64,000 bases of DNA from Gemmatimonadota bacterium (GTDB lineage Bacteria > Gemmatimonadota > Gemmatimonadetes > Gemmatimonadales > GWC2-71-9): positions 8,662-72,661 of the forward strand of contig JBGPPG010000002.1 in the NCBI GenBank assembly GCA_041488455.1, given 5' to 3'. Made by a program: the position numbers and the translations under genes. Below are positions 21,641-56,438 of this stretch, piece after piece; position 1 is the stretch's first letter; the number at the start of each line of letters is the position of its first letter. The notes under the pieces are model-generated. The model did not search any database, was not told the DNA's origin, and saw only the letters and a list, made by a program, of their open reading frames with translations.

Positions 21641-22918
21641 GTGGCTGAGATTGCGTCGGGCTACGACGCGCTGGACCCGTGCGTCCATTGCGGCTTCTGT
21701 CTGCCCGCCTGCCCGACTTACCTGGCCACGGGTGACGAGGCGGACAGCCCGCGCGGGCGCATCGTGCTCATGCGGGCGCTGGAGCGCGGGGAGCTCGACG
21801 CCGAGGACGACGGACTGGTCTCGCACCTGGACGCGTGTCTGGGGTGCCGCGGCTGCGAGCCGGTCTGCCCCTCGGGCGTCGGCTACGGCCGCGGGCTCGA
21901 GGCGGCACGTGAGCAGTTGTTCCGGACCCGCGGGCTCCCCGCGCTTGCCCGTCTCGGGCTTGGCGTCTTCCGGAGCCGGGCACTTTGGCGGGCGCTCTTC
22001 GGTGCGGGCTGGCTGCTCCGCGAGACCGGCATCCCCGCCCGGCTCGCAGGCGAGAGCGGCTTCGGCTTCACCATGGCGATGCTGGCGGCAACGGGGGACG
22101 GGCGGCATCGGCGGGCCCGAGCGGCGGCGACGGGGGCTTCGAAGGGCGCGTCAGTGCGCGGCAGCCCTATGGCTCCGTCAGTCGTCCTCTTTCGCGGCTG
22201 CGTGATGCAAGGACTGTTCGCCCACGTGCACGACGCCACCCGGCGCACGCTGGAGGCCAACGGCTATGAGGTGCGCGAGGCGGAGGGGCAGGCCTGCTGC
22301 GGCGCGCTGCACGAGCATGCAGGGGACCGCGCGGGCGCGGCCGCGCTCGCGGTGCGCAACGTGGCCAGCCTCCTCGACGCAGCCGATTGGATCGTCGTGA
22401 ACAGCGCCGGGTGCGGCGCGCTGCTCAAGGACTACGGCCACCTCCTCGGCACCGACGCCGGCACCCGGTTCGGGGCCAAGGTGCGCGACGTCTCCGAGCT
22501 GCTGGCCGAGCGGGGACCGAGGCCGGGGGGACCGCTTCCGCTCGAGGTGGCCTACGACGCGCCCTGCCATCTCCAGCACGCGCAGCGGGTGCAGGCCGCA
22601 CCGCTCGCGGTCCTCGGCGCGATCCCCGGCCTCCGGCTCCGACTGCTTCCAGGGTCGGATCGGTGCTGCGGCGGCGCGGGCATCTATTCGCTGCTTCACC
22701 CCGGGCTCGCGCGCTCGGTGCTCGACGACAAGCTTCGCGCCTTCCGCGCCGCCGAGCCCGCGCTCGACGCAGTGACCACCGGCAACCCCGGCTGTCTGAT
22801 GCAGATCGGCGCGGGGCTCCGAGCTTCAGGACTCGGAATCCCCGCGGTGCATCCGGTGGAGCTGCTCGACCGATCGTACGCAGCCGGAGGCGTGTACAAG
22901 GAACTGCGCGAACAGTAA
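21641..22918 (+). CDS. glcF: glycolate oxidase iron-sulfur subunit GlcF
   Basis: Two 4Fe-4S motifs (CVHCGFCLPACP, CLGCRGCEPVCP) and C-terminal CCG domains (NSAGCGALL, GNPGCLMQI). Confidence 0.9.
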   Translation: MAEIASGYDALDPCVHCGFCLPACPTYLATGDEADSPRGRIVLMRALERGELDAEDDGLVSHLDACLGCRGCEPVCPSGVGYGRGLEAAREQLFRTRGLPALARLGLGVFRSRALWRALFGAGWLLRETGIPARLAGESGFGFTMAMLAATGDGRHRRARAAATGASKGASVRGSPMAPSVVLFRGCVMQGLFAHVHDATRRTLEANGYEVREAEGQACCGALHEHAGDRAGAAALAVRNVASLLDAADWIVVNSAGCGALLKDYGHLLGTDAGTRFGAKVRDVSELLAERGPRPGGPLPLEVAYDAPCHLQHAQRVQAAPLAVLGAIPGLRLRLLPGSDRCCGGAGIYSLLHPGLARSVLDDKLRAFRAAEPALDAVTTGNPGCLMQIGAGLRASGLGIPAVHPVELLDRSYAAGGVYKELREQ

Positions 22919-39451: not shown

Positions 39452-40831
39452 CTACTCGACCAACTGCAGCTTCTTGATGAGCGAGCCGGTCGGTGACCCC
39501 GGCGGGGGCACGGTCCCCACGCTCTTCGCGAAGAAGAGGAGCCGCCCGTTGATCGCGGAGGTGAGCGGATCCACGTTGTCCACGAACACCACCGCAAAGT
39601 TGTTGAACTGGATGTTGCTCATGCCGGTGTTCACCTGACTCGGATTGAACAACGGCACGGTGATCACCCGAGCGCTGTTCTGCCAGCCCGTGTAGTCGCC
39701 GGTGCACGAGCCCCCGACCAGCTGCTTCACGGCGCCGGTGGTCACGCCGGTGATTGGGTCGGTGGACGAGGCCCAGCAGGCGTTCGGGTCCTGCCCGAGG
39801 AGCCGCTGCACGGCGGCGCTGGTTGAGTCCACGATGGCCGCCGAGTCCGCCGGTGGCGCGGTGGCGGTGCTCGGAAGTGGAGCGCTGAGCCCGATGGGGG
39901 CCGGGTTGCAGTGGTCGATGTTCCAGGCCTGCCAGGCGGCCGGGTTGCCCGGGTCCGACCCCAGGTACGCCTGCGCCTGGCTGCTGTCTACCGGCAGCGT
40001 GACGTTGTGCGTGAACGCGGGGTTCGCCTGCTGGCTCCACTGGTTCTGCGTGTTCAGGATCACCGGCCGGCCGTAGTCGTTCAGGTACTGGCTGCCCGCC
40101 GGATCTCCCCCCATCGGTGCGCCCAGCCCGCTGCCGTTCCGGAAGGGACTGCCGTAACCGGTGGTGCCGGCGGGATCACCCGGGCCGTTGAACCGGGAGT
40201 ACGGGTCTCCATTGTACTTCCAGTCCTCCGGAGCGATGCCCGACGGGTCGGTGTCGTCGAGCCGGTTCCCGTTCGCGTCGGCGCCGGTCGTTGAGTTCCA
40301 CATGTCCGACATGGCCAGTGGCTTCACGCACTTCGCTGTGCCCGCGTTCACCACCTGCGCGGCGGCCTTCGCGCTCACGGTCACGGAGTCGAAGTTGGCA
40401 CCCCAGACCTTGAAGTACTGCGCGAACCAGGTCCGAATGGGCCGCCGGATGAACACCCGGACCTTCTGGCTGTCGGAGAGGACCTGCACGTAGGCATCGG
40501 GCGCGTTCGCGAGCTTGATGCTCCCCCCGGCCGAGTCGGAGCGAATCACCCCGTTCGTGTCGATCATCTCGGTGCCCATGTAGTTGCGGGCGGCGTACTC
40601 CACCGCCTCGGCCACTGCCGAATCGAGGTTGGTCCCGAGACTCGCGTTCATGAACTCCTGCGCGCCCGCCAGTGCGGCAGCGTCCGCCACCCGTTGGGCG
40701 TCGGCCCGCACCTTGAGCAGCATCCCCATGTCGACCGCCAGCGCCGCCATCCCCAGCAGCGCGGCCATCGACAGCGCGACGAATACCGTCGTCGCGCCCC
40801 GCCGTTCCAGTCCTCTGCGCTTCATACGCAT
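39452..40831 (-). CDS. TadG-like pilus assembly protein (TadE/G-like N-terminal hydrophobic segment)
   Basis: N-terminus RGATTVFVALSMAALLGMAALAVDMGMLLKVRADAQRVADAAALAGA is typical of TadG-family pseudopilins. Confidence 0.75.
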   Translation of the reverse strand: MRMKRRGLERRGATTVFVALSMAALLGMAALAVDMGMLLKVRADAQRVADAAALAGAQEFMNASLGTNLDSAVAEAVEYAARNYMGTEMIDTNGVIRSDSAGGSIKLANAPDAYVQVLSDSQKVRVFIRRPIRTWFAQYFKVWGANFDSVTVSAKAAAQVVNAGTAKCVKPLAMSDMWNSTTGADANGNRLDDTDPSGIAPEDWKYNGDPYSRFNGPGDPAGTTGYGSPFRNGSGLGAPMGGDPAGSQYLNDYGRPVILNTQNQWSQQANPAFTHNVTLPVDSSQAQAYLGSDPGNPAAWQAWNIDHCNPAPIGLSAPLPSTATAPPADSAAIVDSTSAAVQRLLGQDPNACWASSTDPITGVTTGAVKQLVGGSCTGDYTGWQNSARVITVPLFNPSQVNTGMSNIQFNNFAVVFVDNVDPLTSAINGRLLFFAKSVGTVPPPGSPTGSLIKKLQLVE

Positions 40832-40855
40832 ACGCCTCCTCAGGCCCCTCTACCT

Positions 40856-42259
40856 CTACTGCGGTTGCTGCGGCGCCGGCGCCGGCTCCTGCGGCGTGCT
40901 CGGGACCGTGCCCGGCGCGGGCTTCTTGAATGTCTTGGACCAGGGCCAGTCGCCCGGCTCGCCGGTGGGAAGCGCCGGCGGCCGGTCGCTCGCCACCACC
41001 AGGTGGGGCGAGACCAGCACCAGAAGCTCGGTCCGCTTCTGCTGCAGGTTCTTCGACCGGAACAGCTGCCCCAGGATCGGAATGTCTCCCAGGAACGGAA
41101 TCTTCGTGATGTTGTCGGTGACGGTGTTGTCGAGCAGCCCCGCGATGGCGAGATACTGGCCCTCCCGCAGCTCCACCTCGGTCTCCGCCCGCCGGGTCGT
41201 GATCGTCGGGATAGTGAACCCGCTGATCACGAGGCCGTTGGCGAAGTCGAGGGCCGAGACCTCGGGCGCCAGCTTGAGCCGGATGGCCCCGCTGCGGGTG
41301 ATCGTCGGCGTGAACCGGAGCCGCACGCCGAACTCCTCGAACTGGACGCCGATCGCGTTGGACGCCCCGCCGCCCTGCACCGCCGGGAAGGGGAACCGGC
41401 CGCCCGCGAGGAAGTAGGCCTCCTTGCCGGGGAGCGTCATCAGGTTGGGCTCAGCCAGGTCGCGGAAGTCGCCCCGCTGCTCGGCCGCGTTGATCAGCGC
41501 CTGGAGCTGCGGGTTCCCGGGCAGGTTGTCCAGCAGGAAGCTCACCGTCGTGGCCGTAGCACTCGGATCGGTCGAGCTGGTGTAGTTGCCGTTGTCGCTC
41601 AGGATCTGCGGGTTCACCGTTTGGAGCTGGGTGCTCCACCGCTTGAGCAGGGAGCGGTTGATCTCCGCGAAGCGGACCCGGAGCAGCACCTGGACCGCCG
41701 GCGGTGCCACCAGGTTGTCGATGATCGTGGCCCCGGAGCCGCGGGCGATGTCGATCGCCCGGCCCACGGAGCCCGGATCCTTCACGTTGCCGCTCAATGT
41801 CACGGAGTTGCCGCTCGCGGTCACCGTGATCTGCTCGTCGGGCATGAGCTGGCGGAGATACCGCTCCAGCGCCGGCGCGTCGGCGGTCACTTCAACGGAG
41901 TACACCTTGACCTGGGTGGAGTTGTCCCAGATGAGAAGCGTGGTGGAGCCGAGGCCCTTGCCGTTGATCACGACTTCGGTCGGCGAGACGATCGTCGCTT
42001 CGCAGATGCTCGGGTCGCCCACCGAGAAGCGCTGAAGCGCTACCGGGTTGACCAGCAGCACCGAGGCCCCCTTGGACACCGAGATCACCCGCTCCGGCTG
42101 GCTGAAGACCTGCTGGGCCCTGAGCGCGGGCGCGGCGGCCACCGCCAGAAGGATGAGTCCCGGCAGGCACCGGGATAGGGACGACCGAACCCGACCACGC
42201 AGACGCTGGCTCACGGCGCTCCCATCCGCTGGGGTTGACGTCGGACCTGCTCGGACCAC
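40856..42259 (-). CDS. cpaC: Tad secretin CpaC/RcpA
   Basis: N-terminal pilus-formation domain (ISVSKGASVLLVNPVALQRFSVGDPSICEA). C-terminal secretin domain (IPILGQLFRSKNLQQKRTELLVLVSPHLV). Confidence 0.9.
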   Translation of the reverse strand: MVRAGPTSTPADGSAVSQRLRGRVRSSLSRCLPGLILLAVAAAPALRAQQVFSQPERVISVSKGASVLLVNPVALQRFSVGDPSICEATIVSPTEVVINGKGLGSTTLLIWDNSTQVKVYSVEVTADAPALERYLRQLMPDEQITVTASGNSVTLSGNVKDPGSVGRAIDIARGSGATIIDNLVAPPAVQVLLRVRFAEINRSLLKRWSTQLQTVNPQILSDNGNYTSSTDPSATATTVSFLLDNLPGNPQLQALINAAEQRGDFRDLAEPNLMTLPGKEAYFLAGGRFPFPAVQGGGASNAIGVQFEEFGVRLRFTPTITRSGAIRLKLAPEVSALDFANGLVISGFTIPTITTRRAETEVELREGQYLAIAGLLDNTVTDNITKIPFLGDIPILGQLFRSKNLQQKRTELLVLVSPHLVVASDRPPALPTGEPGDWPWSKTFKKPAPGTVPSTPQEPAPAPQQPQ

Positions 42260-43107
42260 TAGAACTTCTGCAACGAGCGCACACCACCCCGGAAGACCTC
42301 GATCACCGTCTGCGACGGCTCCGGCACGCTCAGCTCCCGCACCGCTGCGGCGGTCCGCGGCCGCGGGGCGGCGGCACGATTGGCGGGCGGCCCGAACAGG
42401 AGCGCGCTCACGCGGGTGCCCCGCGTCTCCACGTGGAGCGTGTCGAGCATGTTCCGGAGGGCGAGCTGGATCCGGCCCTGGTTCGCGGCCAGCGCGAGGG
42501 TCTCCGCCTGCTCCGGCGTCACCAGGAGCGTCACGACCGGGACCGTCTGCGCCTTGCCTTCCTTATCCTGCTGGATGGACTGACCTGCCGCGAGGGTCTT
42601 CACATTCTGCATGATGACCCGGGTGGACTGCTCCTTCGAGCCGCTGGCGTCGTTCATGGTGAGCAGCACGTCCACGCGGGTCGAGGGGAGCACGAAGCCA
42701 GCCACTCCGACCACTTGGTCCACCGCCACGCTCAGCGCGCGCATGCCTTGGTCGATGATCACGGGGAGGCCCCCGCCGGCGCCCCGGCGCGCCAGCTTGC
42801 CCTCGAGGAGCGGCTCGTTCTCCTGGACGGGGGTGATCAATCCCCGGCCCAGGGCCTCAGGGATGCTGCCGATGAAGCCGAGCGGGACCGCGCCTCCCAC
42901 CCATTCGACCGTCTTCACGTCACGCTCGCCGAGCACCGTGCCCAGCGGCAGATCGTGCGCGGCCACGACCACTTCGGCGTTCTTGGGCCCGGAGGAAATC
43001 AGCGGTCGGGCCTGCTGGCGGATGTACTGCATCGCCAGGTATGCGGCTGCGCCGCCGGAAATTACGGCGAGCGCCAGCAAGATGAACGGTCGGTTCTTAC
43101 GTGCCAT
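42259..43107 (-). CDS. cpaB: Flp pilus assembly protein CpaB/RcpC (SAF domain)
   Basis: N-terminal anchor MARKNRPFILLALAVISGGAAAYLA and a SAF-like domain. 1-nt overlap with the cpaC start. Confidence 0.88.
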   Translation of the reverse strand: MARKNRPFILLALAVISGGAAAYLAMQYIRQQARPLISSGPKNAEVVVAAHDLPLGTVLGERDVKTVEWVGGAVPLGFIGSIPEALGRGLITPVQENEPLLEGKLARRGAGGGLPVIIDQGMRALSVAVDQVVGVAGFVLPSTRVDVLLTMNDASGSKEQSTRVIMQNVKTLAAGQSIQQDKEGKAQTVPVVTLLVTPEQAETLALAANQGRIQLALRNMLDTLHVETRGTRVSALLFGPPANRAAAPRPRTAAAVRELSVPEPSQTVIEVFRGGVRSLQKF

Positions 43108-43116
43108 AACGCTCCC

Positions 43117-43524
43117 TCACTCGTTCCGCATGGTGAACGAGCTGACGATCTGGATCGTGCCGAACGCGCTCCTGAAGAACATGAACGAGTACGGGAACCG
43201 CACCGTCGCCGTCTGTGGGAGGCCGGTCGCCTTCCAGTTCGCGCCGGTCTGGCTGAAGTCGACTGTTGCCACCGTCGTATCCACCCCCGCCTGAGCCAGC
43301 CGGAACATCACGAAGTCGTGCACCTGCTGCTCGGTGATGGTCGGGTCCGCTATCACCGCCTGGCGGGCCCCCTCGCGCGTCGCATCGCTCACCCTCTGAT
43401 CGATATTCCAGACCCGGGCGAACTCGATGATGCCCAGCAGCAGCATGAGCAGGATCGGAAGAATCAGCGCGAACTCCAGGAGCGCCTGCCCCTTGGTCTC
43501 GGCCCGCAACGCGCGCAGCCTCAT
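43117..43524 (-). CDS. tadE: TadE-like minor pilin/pseudopilin
   Basis: ATG 43524 in an ATGA overlap with the tadV stop. GQALLEFALILPILLMLLLGIIEF is the TadE N-terminal motif. Confidence 0.82.
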   Translation of the reverse strand: MRLRALRAETKGQALLEFALILPILLMLLLGIIEFARVWNIDQRVSDATREGARQAVIADPTITEQQVHDFVMFRLAQAGVDTTVATVDFSQTGANWKATGLPQTATVRFPYSFMFFRSAFGTIQIVSSFTMRNE

Positions 43525-44069
43525 GACATCAGCCCTCCCGCAAACCACCACAGCAAGCTGCCTGCCGCGATCGCGATCCCATAGGGCACCGTGAGCCGCT
43601 CTCCACCGGCGGCGGTCAGGCTGGCCGGCCGCCGCCCGAAGGTCACCCAGCTGACGATGAGCGATCCGCACGCCCTGAGCGTCGGCAAGAGCACGCCGCG
43701 CCGGGCCGCCTCCACCACCGCGACCAGGCCGCCGATCACAGCAATGACCAGCGACGCCGAAGCCAGATCGCCCGGCCCCATGAACGCCCCGACCGCCATT
43801 AGCAGCTTGGCGTCCCCTCCGCCAAGCACGCCTGCGACGAAGAACGGCAGCGCCAGGAGCAGCGCCAGGGCAACGCCAAGCACCCCACTCAGCACCACAC
43901 CCGGTCCCATCCACGCCCGGATGACCAATCCCGCGATGACCCCGCCCATGGTGAGCCAGTTCGGAATCCGCCGCGATTTGAGATCCGTCCAACTGGCCCC
44001 GAGCATCACCAGAACGAGCAGGACGCTCGCGGCCGTTTGCTGCACGCCAAAGATACGCATCAGGTACAA
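43521..44069 (-). CDS. tadV: prepilin peptidase CpaA/TadV (A24 family)
   Basis: Polytopic membrane protein with the catalytic Asp motifs WTDLKSRRIPN and GGGDAKLL. Start at TTG 44069 or ATG 44060. Confidence 0.85.
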   Translation of the reverse strand: MYLMRIFGVQQTAASVLLVLVMLGASWTDLKSRRIPNWLTMGGVIAGLVIRAWMGPGVVLSGVLGVALALLLALPFFVAGVLGGGDAKLLMAVGAFMGPGDLASASLVIAVIGGLVAVVEAARRGVLLPTLRACGSLIVSWVTFGRRPASLTAAGGERLTVPYGIAIAAGSLLWWFAGGLMS

Positions 44070-47143: not shown

Positions 47144-48304
47144 ATGGAGGACGCGACGGTGGCGCCCCCGGCCGAACGCCGCCTGAGCCCTTGGCGGATC
47201 CTGGCGGTGGCGGGCGTCTGGGAGGTGCTCGGCCTGGTCGCCTGGGCGATCTCGCCGGCCAGCCACTTCCTGAACATTGCGCTATGCGGCAGCCTGCTGT
47301 TGATCTTCGCCGAGCCTGATCTCGCCCGAGCGGGGCGAACCCTGCTGCTCGGCGCCGGTTTCGGCCTCGTCTGGGGCATCGCGCACCGCGGGGACCTCGG
47401 CGCTCTGCCTACCCATCCGGCGACTCTGGGGGCTTTGCTCGGCCTCGGCGCACTGGCCGACCTGGTACTGCACCCTCCGCAAGACGGCAGCGTCTCCCTG
47501 GCCGCGTTCGGGATTCCCGGGATCGTCCTGGTGGCTGTGCCGGTGATTCTCAGCATCCGGGGTCCGATGACGCAGGACGCCGTGCTGCTCGAGGCCGATC
47601 GTGCTCTCGGCGGACTCTCGAGCTACGCCGTGGCCGGCGTGTTCGGGACCTGGCCCGCGCTGGCGGCGCTTTCCCGGCTCGCCTACGTGTCGCTGCCGGT
47701 CGAGGTCGCCGTGGTGGCGCTGGTGGCGATCCGGAGCGCCCTCCCGACCATGCGGCCCGGCCGCATCATGCTGGTGTGCCTGCTCACGGGCTTCGTGGGT
47801 GCCGCGCTCTACCGGATCTGCCCGGCGACCGGGCCCGTGTACGCATTCCCGGGCTTCCCGAGCGAGCGTCCCGGAGCCCTCCCGCTGGCGGCGATGCAGG
47901 TCCCTCCAGCCTTTCCCCGCAACGCGATTCCCTCGCTCCATTTCGCCTGGGCGTGGATCGTCTGGCGCGCGGCCCGGCCCGTTCGCTGGCTCCGCTCGGC
48001 GACGCTCCTCTGGCTCGTCGGAATCAGCATCGCAGCCCTCGGGTTCGGCGAGCACTATTTGATCGATCTGATCGTGGCCGTCCCGTTCGTGACAACCCTG
48101 GAGGCCCTTGTGGCACCTGCACGCTGGTATCGGCCTCTCGCGGGCGCGCTCGTGACCCTGGCGTGGCTGGTTTACCTGGGCACGAGCGGCCGGCTGTCTC
48201 CCGCCGTCGGCTGGGTGGCGGTCATCGCGACTCTGGCCATCGGGCTGTGGGTGGCGCCCCGCCGCCCCTACGCCGCGCCGGCCCTCGCAGGAGAAGCCGC
48301 GTGA
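47144..48304 (+). CDS. PAP2 superfamily membrane protein (PAP2_3/Aur1-like motifs)
   Basis: Polytopic. Motifs AIPSLHFAWA and FGEHYLIDLIVAVPF resemble the PSxH and HYxxD motifs of PAP2_3-type phosphotransferases. Confidence 0.6.
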   Translation: MEDATVAPPAERRLSPWRILAVAGVWEVLGLVAWAISPASHFLNIALCGSLLLIFAEPDLARAGRTLLLGAGFGLVWGIAHRGDLGALPTHPATLGALLGLGALADLVLHPPQDGSVSLAAFGIPGIVLVAVPVILSIRGPMTQDAVLLEADRALGGLSSYAVAGVFGTWPALAALSRLAYVSLPVEVAVVALVAIRSALPTMRPGRIMLVCLLTGFVGAALYRICPATGPVYAFPGFPSERPGALPLAAMQVPPAFPRNAIPSLHFAWAWIVWRAARPVRWLRSATLLWLVGISIAALGFGEHYLIDLIVAVPFVTTLEALVAPARWYRPLAGALVTLAWLVYLGTSGRLSPAVGWVAVIATLAIGLWVAPRRPYAAPALAGEAA

Positions 48305-48945
48305 CGTCACGCGCCGAGGTGCCCGTTGGCGGCGCGGCGTTGGTCAGGGAGGACGTTCTCCTTCGGGTCGTGTTCCTGGTCTCTGGCTTCGCCGCGATTC
48401 TCTACCAGGTGGTCTGGCAGCGCACGCTGTTCACCCTCATCGGAATTACGATCGAGGCCGTGACGCTCATCGTCACCGCCTTCATCCTGGGCCTCGGGAT
48501 CGGAAGCCTCCTGGGGGGCAGGCTCTCCCGAGCGGAACCTCGCCGGCTTGTCCTCCGCTTCGCCGCGGTGGAGCTCGGTGTCGGCCTGTTCGGGGCGATC
48601 TCGCTGCCGCTGCTGCACGCCGTCGGGCGGTGGACGCTGGGCCTGCCGCCGGCGGCGACCGCCGCGGTCACATTCGCCGCGATCCTCCCGCCGACCATGG
48701 GGATGGGGGCAACCCTGCCGATTCTCGTCGCCTACTACGTCCGCCGGTTCGGCAATGTCGGCAGTGCGGTCGGCGGCCTCTACTTCATCAACACCCTCGG
48801 CTCCGCCGTCGCGGCGTTCGCGGCCGCCTACTCCCTGATGCCACTGCTGGGGCAGACCCGCGTGGTGTGGCTGGCGGCCGGTTGCAACCTGATCGTCGCG
48901 GCGACAGCGGCACTAGGCCTGCGCGGGAAGGCGAGGCAGCCGTGA
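48301..48945 (+). CDS. membrane module paralogous to the N-terminus of spermidine-synthase-like fusion proteins (no catalytic domain)
   Basis: GTG in a GTGA overlap with the previous stop. SGFAAILYQVVWQRTLF, GATLPILVAYY and LYFINTLGSAVAAF parallel the N-terminal half of the next gene. Confidence 0.65.
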   Translation: MTSRAEVPVGGAALVREDVLLRVVFLVSGFAAILYQVVWQRTLFTLIGITIEAVTLIVTAFILGLGIGSLLGGRLSRAEPRRLVLRFAAVELGVGLFGAISLPLLHAVGRWTLGLPPAATAAVTFAAILPPTMGMGATLPILVAYYVRRFGNVGSAVGGLYFINTLGSAVAAFAAAYSLMPLLGQTRVVWLAAGCNLIVAATAALGLRGKARQP

Positions 48946-50507
48946 GCATGACCCTCGCCCTCGCAGTCGCCGCGCTCAGCGGGTTCGTCGCGCTGTCGTA
49001 CGAGATTCTCTGGTACCGGCTCTTCGCCTTTGCGGCGGGCGGCACCGCTCCGGCGTTTGCCCTGCTGCTCGGCTTCTACCTGTACGGGCTCGCCGCGGGG
49101 GGGCTGCTGGCGCGCAGGATCTGCCGGGGCAAGGCCGCCGGAGCGAGCCGTCAGCGCCTTCTCGCCCTGGCCGCCTTCACCGTGGCCGCCAACGCGGTCG
49201 GCTACCTCGTGGTACCTGCACTCACGTCGGCCTGCACGATTGGGGGCTGCTTTATCGCCCTTCCGGCAGTTGCGCTCTCGACGGTGTTGCTGGGGGCGAC
49301 GCTGCCCCTGGTGAGCCACGCCGCGATTCCGCCCGACTGGCAGGCGGGCTCGCGCCTTTCGATCCTCTACTTCGCCAACATCCTGGGCTCGGCGGCGGGG
49401 AGCCTGATCACTGGCTACGGATTGATGGAGTGGTGGCCGTCCAGCCGCATCGCGGTGTTCATCGCGCTGGTGGGGCTGGGGCTGGCGGCCGTGTTCCTGC
49501 GCGCCGGCCGCGCGCCGGCGGCCGCCTATGTCGGGCTGGTGCTCGCGGCGGCAGGCTCGGTCCTGGCCACGCCGCGACTCTTCGACCAGCTCTACGAAAA
49601 GCTGCTGTTCAAGCAGCGTTTTCGCCCCGAGCTCCGGTTCGCGAACACGCTGGAGAACCGGGCCGGCGTGATCAACATCATGCCGTCGGGCCGGGTGTTC
49701 GGCGGCGGCGTCTATGACGGATACGCGCGGATCGATCTCGTGAGCGACCCCAACCTGCTCGTGCGGGTGGTGGCGATTCCGGCGTTCCATCCGCAGCCGA
49801 AGCGCGTCCTCGCGATCGGTCTCTCGATGGGCGCCTGGGAGCAGATCCTGGCGAACCTGCCGGGCGTCGAGCACCTCACCGTGGTCGAGATCAATCGGGG
49901 ATACCTCGCGCTGATCCCGCGGTACCCCGACGTCGCGAGCCTGCTGCACAACCCCAAGGTGACGATCGTCATCGACGACGGACGCCGCTGGCTCAATCAT
50001 CATCCCGACGAGCGCTTCGATCTGATCGTCGCCAACATCTCCTTCCATTGGCGCGAGCACGCGACCAACCTGCTCTCCCGCGAGTTCCTCGAGCTCATGC
50101 GCAACCATCTCGCCCCGGGCGGGGTGTATTACTACAACACGACGTCTTCAGCCGATGCCCTCAAGACGGCGTTCACGGTGTTCCCCTACGGCCTGCGGTT
50201 CATGAACTTCGCCGCGGTGAGCGACAGCCCCCTCCCGTTCGACACCGATGCCTGGCGACGAGGCCTCGAGGCGCTGCGGATCGACGGCCGCCCCGCCCTG
50301 GATCTCACGGACCCCGCACACCAGCGCCGGCTGGACCAGATTCTCGCGCTCGCCGACCCGGCCATCGCGCCACCCACCGGCATGCCGGCGCCGACGGTCG
50401 AATCACGGGAGGACGCCCTCCGGGGCGCAGGCGCGGCGCGCGTGATCACCGACGACAACATGGCTACGGAGTGGAGGGTGTGGACGCTGGGCGCCTGGGA
50501 CCCCTGA
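48942..50507 (+). CDS. fused polytopic membrane / spermidine synthase-like (class I SAM-fold) protein
   Basis: GTG 48942 in a GTGA overlap (or ATG 48948). N-terminal TM module (SGFVALSYEILWYRLFA). C-terminal Rossmann-like part (RVLAIGLSMGAWEQILANLPGVEHLTVVEINRGY, DLIVANISFHW). Confidence 0.72.
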   Translation: MSMTLALAVAALSGFVALSYEILWYRLFAFAAGGTAPAFALLLGFYLYGLAAGGLLARRICRGKAAGASRQRLLALAAFTVAANAVGYLVVPALTSACTIGGCFIALPAVALSTVLLGATLPLVSHAAIPPDWQAGSRLSILYFANILGSAAGSLITGYGLMEWWPSSRIAVFIALVGLGLAAVFLRAGRAPAAAYVGLVLAAAGSVLATPRLFDQLYEKLLFKQRFRPELRFANTLENRAGVINIMPSGRVFGGGVYDGYARIDLVSDPNLLVRVVAIPAFHPQPKRVLAIGLSMGAWEQILANLPGVEHLTVVEINRGYLALIPRYPDVASLLHNPKVTIVIDDGRRWLNHHPDERFDLIVANISFHWREHATNLLSREFLELMRNHLAPGGVYYYNTTSSADALKTAFTVFPYGLRFMNFAAVSDSPLPFDTDAWRRGLEALRIDGRPALDLTDPAHQRRLDQILALADPAIAPPTGMPAPTVESREDALRGAGAARVITDDNMATEWRVWTLGAWDP

Positions 50508-50520
50508 GCAGCGGGTAAAG

Positions 50521-52323
50521 TCAGGCGCCGCGCGGCGCCGACGCAGCGCGGCGATCCCGCACGGCGATGAGAGCCCAGAGCACGCCGAACAGCACGACAC
50601 CGGCTAGAAACCGCGGGTCCGCGATCTGGAGGTGCATCCCGCTCAAGGAGCCTGTCCGTATCTCCAACGTCCCGGGATCGGCCGACGGCGGCGGCCCGGT
50701 GCGTGCGGCGCCCGCCGGAATCTCGCCGTAGACCAGATATTCCCCCTCCTCCGCGATCAGCTCGTACCCCTCGAAGAGCCGCGCCAGCTCCGGATCGCGC
50801 CCGAAGTAGCGGATGTACTGGAAACGCCGGAGTCCGTTCCGGGGCACATCGTGCGCGGGCCGGAGCACCAGCAGTAGCGCGGGCCTGGCCTGGAGCAGGT
50901 CTTGCCGCACCGCGTCCCACATGAACCGCTCCGGCATCGCCATCTCGGCCGGGTCCCGGTAGTCGAGTGGGGCTCCCGCGACGAGGGCGTCCCAGTAGCT
51001 GGCCGGCAGCAGCCAAAGGTGGGGGAAGCGCGACGCCAGACGTACGCCCGCATAGGTGATGAGCGGGAAGGCGCCGTCGAGATGATAGGACAGGACGCCG
51101 ACCGGCCGGCCGGCCGCGTGGGACCGGATGAATCGGGCGCGCGCATACAGGTCCTCCCGGGCCTCGCGCTCGGACGGACTGCCGCCCAGCGCGTCGATCG
51201 CGGCCCCCCCCAACGTCAGGAGCGCGAGCGTGAGTGCCGCAGCCCGGGAGACCTGGCTGTAGACCCGCTCGCTGAGGCGCACCGCCCGGGGCGGCCCGTC
51301 GAGAGCGATGAGCCCAAGCAGGACGTACGCGAGGGCCTCGGCGGGATAGAAGTGATATGGAAGGCCCTTCTGCTGAGCCACCCCAGCCAGATAGCAGCCG
51401 ACGACCCCAGTCGTGAGCACCGCGGTGAGAATCTGATCGCGCTCGTATCGCTGGAGCGCCACGTGCGCCAGGAGCGCCAGAAAGACCACAGCGGCGCCGG
51501 GCGCGAACAGAATCAGGGACGAAAGCGGCTCACGCAGGTAGCGGACGTACGTGGGCCCCAGCTCCATCGCCACCTTGAAGTATTCCGGCGTGAGCAGGGC
51601 GATCGCGCCGACGTAGGCGGCCAGCAGCGCGAATGTGCCGGCCAGCTCCGGGCTGAGCCGCCAACGGTCGGCGGGTCGGCGCAGGCGCTGGTAGCCCTCG
51701 AGGGCCAGCCATGCGAGCCCGAAATGCGGCTTGAGCGCGAGCGCAAGGCCGGCGAGGAGCCCAATGGCCGCCGCCTCATAGAACCGCACGGCGGGCGCGC
51801 GCCCGGCTACCCGCGCGGCCACGAGGAGCAGGTAAGGAGCGAGCAGCGCCAGCACGAAGTGCTCGCGCTGTCCGAAGTCGTCGCCGGAGAACGGGAACAG
51901 CGCGAAGAAGAGCAGGAGGAGGAGCCAGCGTCTGAACGCTGGATCGTCGCGCACGAGATAACGGCCAACCAGGCGAGCGCAGAAGCAGAACAGCGCCACG
52001 ACGACCGCGAACGTGGCCACCCGATAGACGAAGAACTCGGAGAGGTGCCACGCTCGCGCCAGGAACGCCACCCCGACATTGAGCCAGACGATCAGGGGCG
52101 GATTGATCTCGACGATGTCACGATAGAGCCGGGCACCATCCAGCACTCTCCCGCCCGCGTAGAGCAGGAACGCCATGTCCGGAGACGCCGCGCGCGACAC
52201 CTGGGCGGCGAGCGTCAGCGCGCCGAGCGCGAACAACGCCGCCCGGAAGAGCGATCGATGGCCGGCTTCGCCGTTTACCAATCGGCCTCGGCCGCCGAGC
52301 GGACGACCCGCGGCGATCCGCAT
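50521..52323 (-). CDS. polytopic GT-C glycosyltransferase, GT87/DUF2029-like (polyprenol-P-mannose-dependent mannosyltransferase-like)
   Basis: First-loop motif DMAFLLYAGGRVLDGARLYRDIVEINPPL resembles the DUF2029/PimE-like signature. Many TM segments. TTG 52281 is the likelier start (7-nt overlap instead of 49). Confidence 0.6.
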   Translation of the reverse strand: MRIAAGRPLGGRGRLVNGEAGHRSLFRAALFALGALTLAAQVSRAASPDMAFLLYAGGRVLDGARLYRDIVEINPPLIVWLNVGVAFLARAWHLSEFFVYRVATFAVVVALFCFCARLVGRYLVRDDPAFRRWLLLLLFFALFPFSGDDFGQREHFVLALLAPYLLLVAARVAGRAPAVRFYEAAAIGLLAGLALALKPHFGLAWLALEGYQRLRRPADRWRLSPELAGTFALLAAYVGAIALLTPEYFKVAMELGPTYVRYLREPLSSLILFAPGAAVVFLALLAHVALQRYERDQILTAVLTTGVVGCYLAGVAQQKGLPYHFYPAEALAYVLLGLIALDGPPRAVRLSERVYSQVSRAAALTLALLTLGGAAIDALGGSPSEREAREDLYARARFIRSHAAGRPVGVLSYHLDGAFPLITYAGVRLASRFPHLWLLPASYWDALVAGAPLDYRDPAEMAMPERFMWDAVRQDLLQARPALLLVLRPAHDVPRNGLRRFQYIRYFGRDPELARLFEGYELIAEEGEYLVYGEIPAGAARTGPPPSADPGTLEIRTGSLSGMHLQIADPRFLAGVVLFGVLWALIAVRDRRAASAPRGA

Positions 52324-54047: not shown

Positions 54048-54818
54048 CTATCCGCGGGTCACCGCGCGCTCGACGCCCGCCTGGCCCAGCACAGCCGCCG
54101 CGTCGGCCGGTTGCCCCGGGGGCACGATCAGGTTGAACCGGAGGATGTGCCAGAGCGCCGCAACCCCGTCCCGCCAGCCGATCTTCTTCCCCTCAGCGTA
54201 CGTCCGGCCGGAGTAGGAGATCGACACCTCCCAGATCCGCGCCCCGACCTGCGCCAGCCGCGCCGTGAGCTCGGGCTCGAACCCGAACCGGTCGCTGGTG
54301 AGCACCAGCGATTTCATGAGCGGCGCCCGCACCATCTTGTAGCACGTCTCCATGTCGGTCAGGTTCAGATCGGTGAACATGTTCGACAGGAGCGTCAGCA
54401 CGCTGTTGCCGACCGAGTGCCAGAAGTAGAGCACGCGGTGGTCGCCGCCGAGAAACCGGGAGCCGAACACCGCATCCGCCTTCCCGTCGCGAATCGGCTG
54501 GAGGAGCCGGGGCAGCTCCGCCGGGTCGTACTCCAGGTCGGCGTCCTGCACCACGATCACGTCGCCCGTCGCCCGGGCGATCCCGGTCCGGATCGCGGCG
54601 CCCTTGCCGCGGTTCCGCGGGTGGTGGAGCACGACGTCCACGACGCCCTCCTCGCGCAGCCCCTCCAGGAGCGCACCCGAGCCATCCGCCGACGCATCGT
54701 TGACCGTGATGAGCTCGAGGTTGAGCGGCACCGCGCGGACCCGCCGCACCAGGTCAGCCACGGTGCGGGCCTCGTTATAAACCGGAATGATGACGGACAC
54801 GCGCTGGGACGGAGTCAT
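54048..54818 (-). CDS. GT2 family polyprenol-phosphate glycosyltransferase (Dpm1/Ppm1/ArnC-like)
   Basis: [14 protein letters not shown], a DAD motif ([11 protein letters not shown]), and about 250 aa without a TM domain. Confidence 0.85.
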
Positions 54819-54917: not shown

Positions 54918-56183
54918 TCAGCTCTTCGGCTCGAGCCCCGCCGCCCGGCGACACGGTTCCGCATAGGCCGGCTCCACCGCCGCGCACAGCGTCCGGCGCT
55001 CTGCGGAAGACGCGAAGTTGGTCAGCACGCCCGCGGTCGTCCGGTAGCACGCTTCCTTCCAGCCGGCCGGTGACGCCGCGCAGAACCGCACCGCCCGCCC
55101 CCCGGACCAGTCCATCTGTACCAGCGCGCGAGCCGCACCGGCGGCGCAATCCTGGCCAAGCTCAGGCCGGCCCCGCCCGCATTGCTCGATGATCCACCCG
55201 TCATCGCGTTGGAGCAGCCCTGTGACCTGGAACCCGACGCTCTCATAGCAGAGCCCCACGCGGCCGCCGGGCGCCTGATCGCAGGTGCGCAACGCCGCTG
55301 CCGCCTCGAAGTTCCGGGACCGAAGGATGACGAATCCCTGAAAGACCCAACACTCTGCCCCGTAGGGATCCTCAAATCGGTCGCACGGGCTGTAGGGATC
55401 CTTCGGGTCGATCGCGAGCTGATGCCCCGAACCCAAGGCGTGGCCCGCATGGCTTCCGTGGTCCACGCCGGCATGATGGGCGTGCCCGCCCGCGCCATCG
55501 AGTTTCGATTCCCCCAACGCCGAGTTGATCGCCTCCATGAACGCACCGGAATAGCACGGTCCCGCACGGCCTCCGGACAAGCCGTCGCAGTCGTGGAGCG
55601 CCGCCTCGAGATCGAAACCCGTCGCGCCAAGCACCCCGTGGCCCAAGCCGTGGATGCACTCGTGCACCGGGCCCGGCCGCTCCTCGCTCCCCGCCCCGAG
55701 GCACATACGCTCGAGCTCCGCCATATCGACCCGGCCCCGTGTCTGCACCGCGGCCTCGACGACCCCGTGAAAGCAGCCGGAGGCGAAGTCGGACCGGCAC
55801 TGCCGGATCACCGATGCATCACCACCGTTCGCCGCGACCGCCATTCGGCCCAGGGCGTGGGCCAGCTGATGCCCGCCCCGCAGCACCGTGCTGTCCTCGG
55901 CGGCGGCCCGATCGAGTGCATCCAGTGCTGCCGGCAGGCCGTCCCGCTGGAGCGCGCCGAACGCTGCCGCAACGCGGAGGTCGCTCGCCGTGGGCCGGGT
56001 CCAGTCGATCGCACCCGGCTGGTGCCCGGCGGCGGCAGCTCGCCCCGGTGTGAGCCGGCGGCTCAGGAGCGCGCCGACCAGCGCCCCGTCAGCGAAGAGC
56101 AACAGGGCGATGAAACCGAGGAACCATTGGCGACGCCGCCCCAGTGACGTCCCGCTATGGGCTTCGTTTGGGGGGCTAGTCAC
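54918..56183 (-). CDS. membrane-anchored cysteine-pair repeat protein with His-rich insert (uncharacterised)
   Basis: N-terminal TM WFLGFIALLLFADGALVGALL. Eight Cys pairs, six of them exactly C-x10-C, each followed by an aromatic-x-G motif. Insert GGHAHHAGVDHGSHAGHALGSGH. Confidence 0.65.
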   Translation of the reverse strand: MTSPPNEAHSGTSLGRRRQWFLGFIALLLFADGALVGALLSRRLTPGRAAAAGHQPGAIDWTRPTASDLRVAAAFGALQRDGLPAALDALDRAAAEDSTVLRGGHQLAHALGRMAVAANGGDASVIRQCRSDFASGCFHGVVEAAVQTRGRVDMAELERMCLGAGSEERPGPVHECIHGLGHGVLGATGFDLEAALHDCDGLSGGRAGPCYSGAFMEAINSALGESKLDGAGGHAHHAGVDHGSHAGHALGSGHQLAIDPKDPYSPCDRFEDPYGAECWVFQGFVILRSRNFEAAAALRTCDQAPGGRVGLCYESVGFQVTGLLQRDDGWIIEQCGRGRPELGQDCAAGAARALVQMDWSGGRAVRFCAASPAGWKEACYRTTAGVLTNFASSAERRTLCAAVEPAYAEPCRRAAGLEPKS

Positions 56184-56401
56184 AGGCGGATCCCAACGCT
56201 GCCATTAATAGTATACGTGACTACTACTATCGAAAGAGACATGGCCCATCGTGGGTTGAGGCGTGTCCCGACCCGTGCCGATCGCTCCCCGCCCGCCAAG
56301 CCGCTGACTGGAAACGGGTTATCAGGATGGCGGCAAGCCAGGTCGAAAATCACTAAGCGACCACACCTGTAACTTATTGATAAACATTGCGTTATATTTG
56401 C

Positions 56402-56431
56402 TTGACTTCGCTAGTACCGCCCGGGTAATTC
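56402..56431 (+). promoter_or_regulatory. sigma70-type promoter candidate immediately upstream of ptrB (would give a near-leaderless mRNA)
   Basis: TTGACT (56402-56407), 18-nt spacer, TAATTC (56426-56431). ATG at 56439. No Shine-Dalgarno in between. Confidence 0.3.
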
Positions 56432-56438
56432 CGCTGTC

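Follow-up and report, generated by a model that had tools for sequence, protein, structure and literature searches.

A predicted disulfide-stapled helical-repeat protein family with a conserved His/Met ladder, encoded beside glycosyltransferase genes in a Gemmatimonadota genome

What kind of protein carries sixteen cysteines set in regular pairs, and what might it do at the head of a glycosylation gene unit? The question is raised by a 421-residue open reading frame (ORF) in a 64,000-nucleotide stretch of a Gemmatimonadota genome (contig JBGPPG010000002.1 of assembly GCA_041488455.1; hereafter the window), whose position is given in Table 1 together with those of its parts and neighbours. An earlier note, made from the sequence of this stretch, had described a membrane-anchored protein with eight cysteine pairs and a histidine-rich insert, and had taken the insert as a hint of metal binding. 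In the reading that we favour, whose chances we judge to be evenly balanced, the protein is an extracytoplasmic, disulfide-stapled solenoid with one or two transition-metal sites supplied by a ladder of five histidines, a methionine and a glutamate, as suggested by the sequences of its relatives and by a structural model.

Paired cysteines in a predicted helical solenoid

The cysteines fall into eight consecutive pairs (129/137, 161/176, 199/210, 267/278, 301/312, 335/346, 368/379 and 400/411) that recur with a period of about 33 residues. The gaps inside the pairs are, in order, 7, 14 and then six times 10 residues; those separating the pairs measure 20-23 residues, except for one of 56 where the His-rich insert intervenes. 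These positions agree with the earlier note, and chance is an unlikely source of the spacing, six or more identical gaps having arisen in 11 of 200,000 random placements. Cysteine makes up 3.8% of the protein, as compared with 0-0.7% in eight neighbouring proteins. The motif that the note had proposed, C-x(7-14)-C-aromatic-x-G, holds for the pairs themselves, while its trailing part was overstated: an aromatic residue follows in five of the eight repeats, a glycine stands at +3 in four, and the two occur together only in FHG and YSG.

AlphaFold2, run on an alignment of 100 sequences, returned a model (mean predicted local distance difference test score, pLDDT, 88.3; predicted template modelling score 0.81) in which a long N-terminal helix (residues 14-44), lying over the hydrophobic stretch that had been taken as a single transmembrane helix, is followed by a disordered linker and an all-helical domain built as a hairpin solenoid, the sole internal region of low confidence being the His-rich segment at 228-251. 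In each unit two helices, a short one (about 8 residues) and a long one (about 16), are joined by a loop, again of about 8. Every cysteine pair is placed by the predicted secondary structure across the loop of one hairpin: the first cysteine closes the short helix and the second falls within the opening turn of the long one, a disulfide-compatible arrangement. Units R3 to R8 are mutually homologous and in register (hhalign, 85-97%, profile-profile on unit sub-alignments), and R1 and R2 are more diverged. We therefore read the C-terminal 350 residues of the protein, which would face the periplasm, as an alpha/alpha solenoid in which some nine hairpins of about 33 residues follow one another; eight of these are probably closed by one disulfide each, judging from helix positions and conservation, in line with the disulfide-type pairing of helical repeats first proposed. 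Homologues bear cleavable signal peptides or lipoprotein signals in place of the anchor helix, which places the domain outside the cytoplasm, where disulfides can form.

The fold does not lead back to a described family. A Foldseek search of the PDB retrieved generic HEAT, ARM and TPR solenoids only (best E 0.03, template modelling score about 0.2), and membership in these repeat families was rejected, given this weak and generic similarity and the lack of any Pfam repeat match. A LanC-like alpha/alpha toroid, considered for the GxxG and CHG motifs, was likewise rejected: neither the window protein nor 66 diverse members of the family matched the Pfam model LANC_like, and the top Foldseek matches are open solenoids. 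Searches by sequence likewise brought up no known family. Pfam and NCBIfam gave nothing for the window protein at E<=1 and no recurrent model for the 66 members, none of which matched Sel1 or TPR even at that threshold; in the PDB the single protein found nothing meaningful and the family profile nothing at E<=10. In the literature we found no description of the family under the HGxGH motif, under Cx10C, or under combinations of His-brace, cupredoxin and helical repeat.

The family is nevertheless large. The close clade comprises 136 clusters, all named 'hypothetical' and some labelled Gemmatimonadales, and in a full hidden Markov model (HMM) scan 5,478 or more clusters at 50% identity passed E<=1e-3 and 3,286 passed E<=1e-10; repeating the search with a diverse profile led mostly back to the close clade, and looking up clusters yielded no informative names. 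A scan of GTDB representative genomes yielded 548 confirmed matches, and what we say of taxa and neighbourhoods from that scan is drawn from the 80 that were listed. Gemmatimonadota (Longimicrobium among them) and Binatia account for most of these, and Nitrospirota, Thermodesulfobacteriota, Dehalococcoidia and Actinomycetota for a few; paralogues occur in metagenome-assembled genomes assigned to Gemmatimonas aurantiaca (loci L025 and L055), and one locus is probably archaeal, since a TBP gene lies nearby. Bacteria of the candidate phyla radiation (CPR) hold a large branch. A family of at least 5,478 clusters thus has no Pfam or NCBIfam model and no sequence relative among solved structures, and its one disulfide staple per helical hairpin, if correctly predicted, is a rare architecture.

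Members share a signature of HxxxH, GC-x-HG, C-x-HG-x-GHG and C-x-x-G-x-F-M-E with eight or nine cysteine pairs, all of which is present in the window protein. C-x10-C is the dominant pair spacing family-wide, and in most representatives each domain copy has CxHGxGH a single time, some tandem copies being without the exact pattern. With 18-20 cysteines, most of the distant homologues possess one pair more, a ninth C-x10-C that precedes the HxxxH helix (alignment A2); the clade of the window protein has lost it, leaving 16. A second ORF with 16 cysteines lies in the window (425 residues, 21641-22918, plus strand). It has two CxxCxxCxxxCP ferredoxin-type motifs and C-terminal CC-containing motifs and reads as a GlcF/HdrD-like Fe-S/CCG protein; it is not picked up by the family HMM, so that there is no second family copy at that place.

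The His/Met ladder as a candidate metal site

We counted conservation over about 550 domain instances, comprising the close clade, diverse representatives and CPR proteins including their tandem copies. Each of the 16 cysteines is kept at 96-100%. As strongly retained are H105, H109, H139, H178, H182 and M216 (98-100%) and G213 (99-100%), followed by E217 (90-100%) and E143 (49-100%). For the set of five histidines, a methionine and a glutamate this is a conservation as tight as that of an enzyme active site. These residues follow a rule of position: counted from the cysteine position, sites +2 and +6 of four long helices in a row are H105/H109, H139/E143, H178/H182 and S212/M216, with E217 adjoining M216. 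Units R1 to R3 carry most of the ladder, as H139/E143, C176-x-H178-G-x-G-H182-G and G213-x-F-M216-E217, and by this alignment its residues would form a two-column array on one face of the helix stack. Conserved residues in R4 to R8 are chiefly cysteines, glycines and Q282.

The metal signal is stronger here, in residues that had first gone unnoticed, than in the insert to which it had been ascribed. The insert was correctly described, with 7 histidines within residues 232-254, GGHAHHAGVDHGSHAGHALGSGH (nucleotides 55422-55490), a density matched in 9 of 20,000 shuffles of the sequence. Its conservation is not universal: three or more histidines are found in 93% of close relatives and in 50% of the diverse representatives, and the CPR loop at the same position is short, with 0-2. 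From the aligned sequences it is a clade-specific elaboration. His-rich loops and linkers recur at differing positions in the family, and in other members His-rich linkers join N-terminal membrane domains to the solenoid. Such membrane domains include two unrelated multi-transmembrane extensions of 120-250 residues, each followed by a His-rich linker and neither matching Pfam (Table 1).

Fusion of the domain to atypical, His-lined cupredoxins recurs among relatives. Among 20 longer representatives, nine include Cupredoxin_1 (PF13473) and/or plastocyanin-type domains, in CPR and other low-GC lineages. In the CPR, at least 240 clusters match a query with the cupredoxin architecture, most of those listed carrying Cupredoxin_1; the widespread form there, of about 830 residues, joins a cupredoxin to two domain copies, and its sole annotation is 'cupredoxin domain-containing protein'. 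True homology links the fused domain to plastocyanin, amicyanin and nitrite reductase (for nitrite reductase and plastocyanin, E about 1e-5). The domain is without the type-1 cysteine ligand and carries HWPASNxHPTH...HDH; in the plastocyanin alignment, conserved histidines fall at two of the copper-ligand histidines and a further one lies beside the gapped cysteine ligand. In about 11 fused low-GC members (Table 1) the predicted mature chain opens with a histidine after the signal peptide (...PVFA|HSLV, ...LVFA|HGDEQH), a feature reminiscent of histidine-brace copper sites. A different fusion is seen in P0121 (locus L087, 9001-19743), a secreted protein of 3,580 residues with nine tandem copies followed by a GH3 N-terminal domain (E 6e-61) and LRV/HEAT repeats; its gene has PIG-L and FG-GAP proteins among its neighbours.

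Histidine plus methionine is the typical ligand set of periplasmic copper. On this chemical ground, and in view of the fusions to cupredoxins and the appended His-rich segments, copper is, by analogy, the most likely metal of the predicted site. In such a protein H105/H109, H139/E143, H178/H182 and S212/M216 with E217, on the first four long helices, would be the ligands; the flexible His-rich loop that follows the last of these helices, gained in Gemmatimonadota and some further lineages, would serve as an accessory arm for capturing metal; and the five C-terminal units would provide a rigid scaffold.

Genomic context and competing readings

The family gene heads a unit of four co-oriented minus-strand genes, as had been stated in placing it at the head of a glycosylation arm: it is followed by genes for a family 2 glycosyltransferase (GT2), for a PMT_2-type glycosyltransferase of the GT-C class and for a protein of 600 residues (Table 1). 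The best NCBIfam matches of the GT2 (AglJ, ArnC and PpgS) all lie far under their cut-offs, and homologues of the 600-residue protein were found at loci L001 and L007 only. Between 50300 and 56600 we detected no sigma-70-like promoter and no intrinsic terminator, nor any terminator-like site inside the unit. The divergent region upstream (56184-56438) is presumed to be the promoter region, since its GC content drops to 40-49% in two patches; it gave no Rfam match.

(Table 1)
Table 1. Position of the family gene, its parts and its neighbours in the window, and of related features at other loci
Feature	Position	Strand	Details and basis
Whole ORF, 421 residues, member of the predicted 'CxHGxGH' disulfide-hairpin solenoid family	54918..56183	minus	GTG start
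N-terminal transmembrane anchor helix, residues 14-44	56052..56144	minus	AlphaFold2 helix over hydrophobic stretch
Linker from anchor to domain, residues 45-71, low confidence	55971..56051	minus	pLDDT below 50 at 46-58
Capping helices and unit R0, residues 72-118, without Cys pair, invariant H105-x3-H109	55830..55970	minus	Conservation
Units R1-R3, residues 119-224, Cys pairs 129/137, 161/176, 199/210	55512..55829	minus	Sequence, AlphaFold2, conservation
Disordered His-rich insert, residues 225-262	55398..55511	minus	pLDDT below 50 at 228-251
Units R4-R8, residues 263-417, five C-x10-C hairpins, proposed scaffold half	54933..55397	minus	Sequence, AlphaFold2, hhalign
GT2 glycosyltransferase, polyprenyl-phosphate sugar synthase type	54048..54818	minus	99-nt gap after family ORF
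PMT_2-type GT-C glycosyltransferase, 589 residues	52275..54044	minus	3-nt gap after GT2 gene
600-residue protein with hydrophobic stretches, probably membrane, no Pfam match	50521..52323	minus	Overlaps PMT_2 gene end by 49 nt; last in unit
Divergent intergenic region, shared with S9 peptidase (prolyl-oligopeptidase family) gene	56184..56438	.	Two patches of 40-49% GC, genome 70% GC
CPR cassette	L090 2751-9496; L091 2660-9493; L092 1922-9490; L085 3625-10811
Fused members with His-first mature chain	P0131, P0162, P0163, P0172, P0176, P0177, P0183, P0187, P0198, P0228, P0250
Extension with 'WDAxxH...NPSH' or 'HFxVAGxHFxxW...SRTVGxPFGP'	P0151/P0152/P0165/P0170/P0200 and P0143/P0166/P0255/P0259

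Among nine loci of the clade of the window protein (>=48% identity), seven have a GT2 gene within 8 kb and five a PMT_2 gene (L001, L002, L005, L006 and L007). A PMT_2-like gene also adjoins the family gene in two very distant loci, L085, in which its stop overlaps the start of the family gene (26.7 bits), and L086, with a weaker match (E 5e-4). Our best reading is a functional tie to GT-C-dependent envelope glycosylation in some lineages. In the genome of the window the protein is probably co-expressed with the GT2 and the PMT_2 GT-C, and would probably act on or beside the envelope glycoconjugate that they handle. Clustering of the 80 neighbourhoods showed no universal partner; the synteny that it brought out was confined to lineage-specific housekeeping genes, which we read from their sequences as methylmalonyl-CoA mutase/MeaB, DeoC, aldehyde dehydrogenase, glutamine synthetase and LpxH.

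The CPR loci have a cassette of their own, in which a single-domain member (374-395 residues, E 1e-53 to 1e-63), a membrane protein of about 85 residues (three of the four loci), a Tyr-rich protein and a cupredoxin-fused two-copy member are encoded. The Tyr-rich 'YYTPP' protein, a secreted surface protein with Cys repeats (10-15% Tyr, 10-14% Thr, 10-16% Pro, 10-12% Ser), is encoded between two family members and could be a target of glycosylation or of oxidative cross-linking.

Several further observations concern the surroundings of family genes. In the window, a PAP2_3 gene (47144-48304, plus strand) and a spermine-synthase-like gene (48630-50507, plus strand) converge on the glycosylation unit; the latter recurs near family members in L001 and L086, the former in L001 and on the P0113 contig. 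In some Gemmatimonadales relatives at 48-55% identity (L002, 6421-10816; P0113 contig) the family gene sits tightly between genes for membrane proteins of about 520 residues, at least one of them sulfatase-like (alkaline-phosphatase superfamily), with GT2, methyltransferase, PMT_2 and PAP2 genes close by. Thiol-redox genes were seen at two loci: a set of Redoxin (TlpA-like), DUF3179 and DsbD_2 lies divergently beside the gene of the cupredoxin-fused P0162 (L088, 326-2060), and a DsbD_TM/DsbD_2 gene stands at the edge of L091 (1-545), about 6.5 kb from another cupredoxin-fused member. They may reflect a need for extracytoplasmic thiol-redox upkeep. A Tad/Flp pilus cluster downstream in the window (39452-44069, minus strand; TadG-like, secretin RcpA/CpaC, RcpC/CpaB and TadE-like) is unrelated to the finding.

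Several points weigh against a metal-binding protein tied to glycosylation. M216 could be a mere core residue, and the conserved histidines could bind a substrate or heme in place of a metal ion. The window protein is itself without a cupredoxin domain (PF13473 or PF00127), and copper-homeostasis genes (CopA, CopC/D, Sco, PCuAC, multicopper oxidase) were not seen beside any member. Glycosyltransferase adjacency is missing from most clades, including those at about 30% identity, whose partners are lineage-specific housekeeping genes, and from three of the four CPR loci. The topology of the anchor is ambiguous by the positive-inside rule, with arginine clusters flanking it on both sides.

We weighed four other explanations against the metal site. 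The histidine patch might be the ligand-binding groove of a metal-free periplasmic adaptor, recognising in trans the protein or glycan acceptor of the neighbouring GT-C, much as the lumenal TPR domain of TMTC enzymes might be imagined to do; these enzymes belong to the GT-C/PMT clan and have about ten lumenal TPR repeats (PMC7801869). PMT_2-type GT-C genes adjoining family members in three very distant lineages, the GH3 fusion, and Foldseek neighbours that are all protein-binding solenoids would fit such an adaptor. We still consider it unlikely, as five histidines and a methionine that stay near-invariant over more than 550 copies at below 30% identity would be unusual for a protein or glycan groove, the glycosyltransferase neighbour is missing in most clades, and the cupredoxin fusions and His-rich tails would be left unexplained.

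Distinctly less probable is a heme-binding redox protein resembling COA7, which passes electrons, for example, to reduce the disulfides of copper-site assembly factors. In COA7, a protein of copper-site biogenesis, disulfide-tethered helical repeats do go together with heme ligation by His/Met (PMC8892353); the invariant histidines and methionine of the family have glycine neighbours, the cupredoxin fusions suit electron transfer, and the Redoxin and DsbD-like genes near P0162 and in L091 would accord with a redox function. Yet no relation to COA7 or Hcp in sequence or detectable fold was found and no neighbour handles heme, and five histidines with a methionine on four adjacent parallel helices would exceed the needs of one heme and differ from a heme sandwich.

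It is more doubtful still that the protein is itself the glycoprotein acceptor of the adjacent GT2 and GT-C, its conserved residues being structural only. It is encoded first in a unit with these enzymes, its disordered linker (residues 45-71) contains Thr, Pro and Ser, and CPR members flank a Tyr/Thr/Pro/Ser-rich secreted protein that resembles an O-glycosylation target; the linker, however, is short and has no marked excess of Ser/Thr, a glycosyltransferase neighbour is missing for most members, and the invariant histidines and methionine would go unexplained. That the sixteen invariant cysteines are themselves ligands of zinc or an Fe-S cluster, in a protein whose N-terminal RRxWF-like sequence loosely recalls the twin-arginine export motif, is scarcely credible, because the pairs come one per hairpin along a solenoid of about 100 Å (a rough estimate) and not in fours, each brackets a 10-residue hairpin loop in the geometry of a staple, and the RR motif is not kept in the family, in which many homologues have Sec-type or lipoprotein signals; a twin-arginine signal was accordingly rejected as a family trait.

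Returning to the transition-metal site in the His/Met/Glu ladder, a bolder version would make the family a new class of extracytoplasmic copper-dependent enzymes that use a His5/Met centre to modify envelope glycoproteins or glycans oxidatively alongside GT-C, often with a His-lined cupredoxin partner, the CPR 'YYTPP' protein being a candidate substrate. We offer this as a speculation with the chances well against it. Should the site bind copper, envelope copper chemistry would gain a new scaffold, in soil phyla that have been little studied and in the CPR, whose surface biology is almost unknown; the recurring link to PMT_2-type GT-C would likewise offer a way into bacterial glycosylation systems, of protein or lipid, whose acceptor is unknown.

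Relation to known systems

The closest precedent in architecture is a family to which the protein does not belong. Hcp proteins have a period of about 36 residues with C-x7-C pairs, as compared with about 33 here, gaps of 7, 14 and six times 10, and a separate CxHGxGH / GxFME signature. The kinship with Sel1-like and Helicobacter cysteine-rich proteins that had been proposed found no support: none of the 66 members matched Sel1 (PF08238), no PDB profile match was obtained, and the 50 Foldseek matches listed include neither Hcp nor COA7. Because no Pfam, PDB or specific Foldseek match exists, the resemblance is an analogy and not membership. HcpB, HcpC and human COA7 are the documented disulfide-tethered alpha/alpha repeat proteins, and in COA7, which takes part in the assembly of copper sites, a His/Met pair ligates heme b axially (PMC8892353). 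What they would share with the present family is a chain of alpha/alpha hairpin repeats, each tethered by a disulfide (here by prediction), in an oxidising compartment, the periplasm or the mitochondrial intermembrane space.

TMTC1-4 and bacterial proteins combining PMT_2 with TPR likewise associate a non-cytoplasmic helical solenoid with a PMT_2-type GT-C (PMC7801869). In the present family the solenoid is a separate polypeptide, non-TPR by sequence, with predicted disulfide staples and an invariant His/Met patch, and the association is seen in some clades only.

With the periplasmic copper proteins CopC/PcoC, CusF and PCuAC the family has in common an extracytoplasmic location, invariant histidines and methionine as candidate ligands, and flexible His-rich segments. 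HxxxH followed by a further histidine is the sequence pattern of type-3 copper sites, and it occurs twice here (H105/H109/H139, and H178/H182 with a loop histidine), as a sequence pattern only; tyrosinase and hemocyanin gave neither a Pfam nor a PDB profile match. Both groups differ in fold, being beta-sandwiches or a four-helix bundle as against a helical solenoid without a Pfam match, and a ladder spread over four parallel helices speaks against a single binuclear centre. Cupredoxin_1 and plastocyanin domains share a polypeptide with the solenoid only in distant relatives of the window protein. The idea of a disulfide-tethered helical repeat is known; what is new here is the nearly invariant His/Met site, together with its recurrent fusion to cupredoxins.

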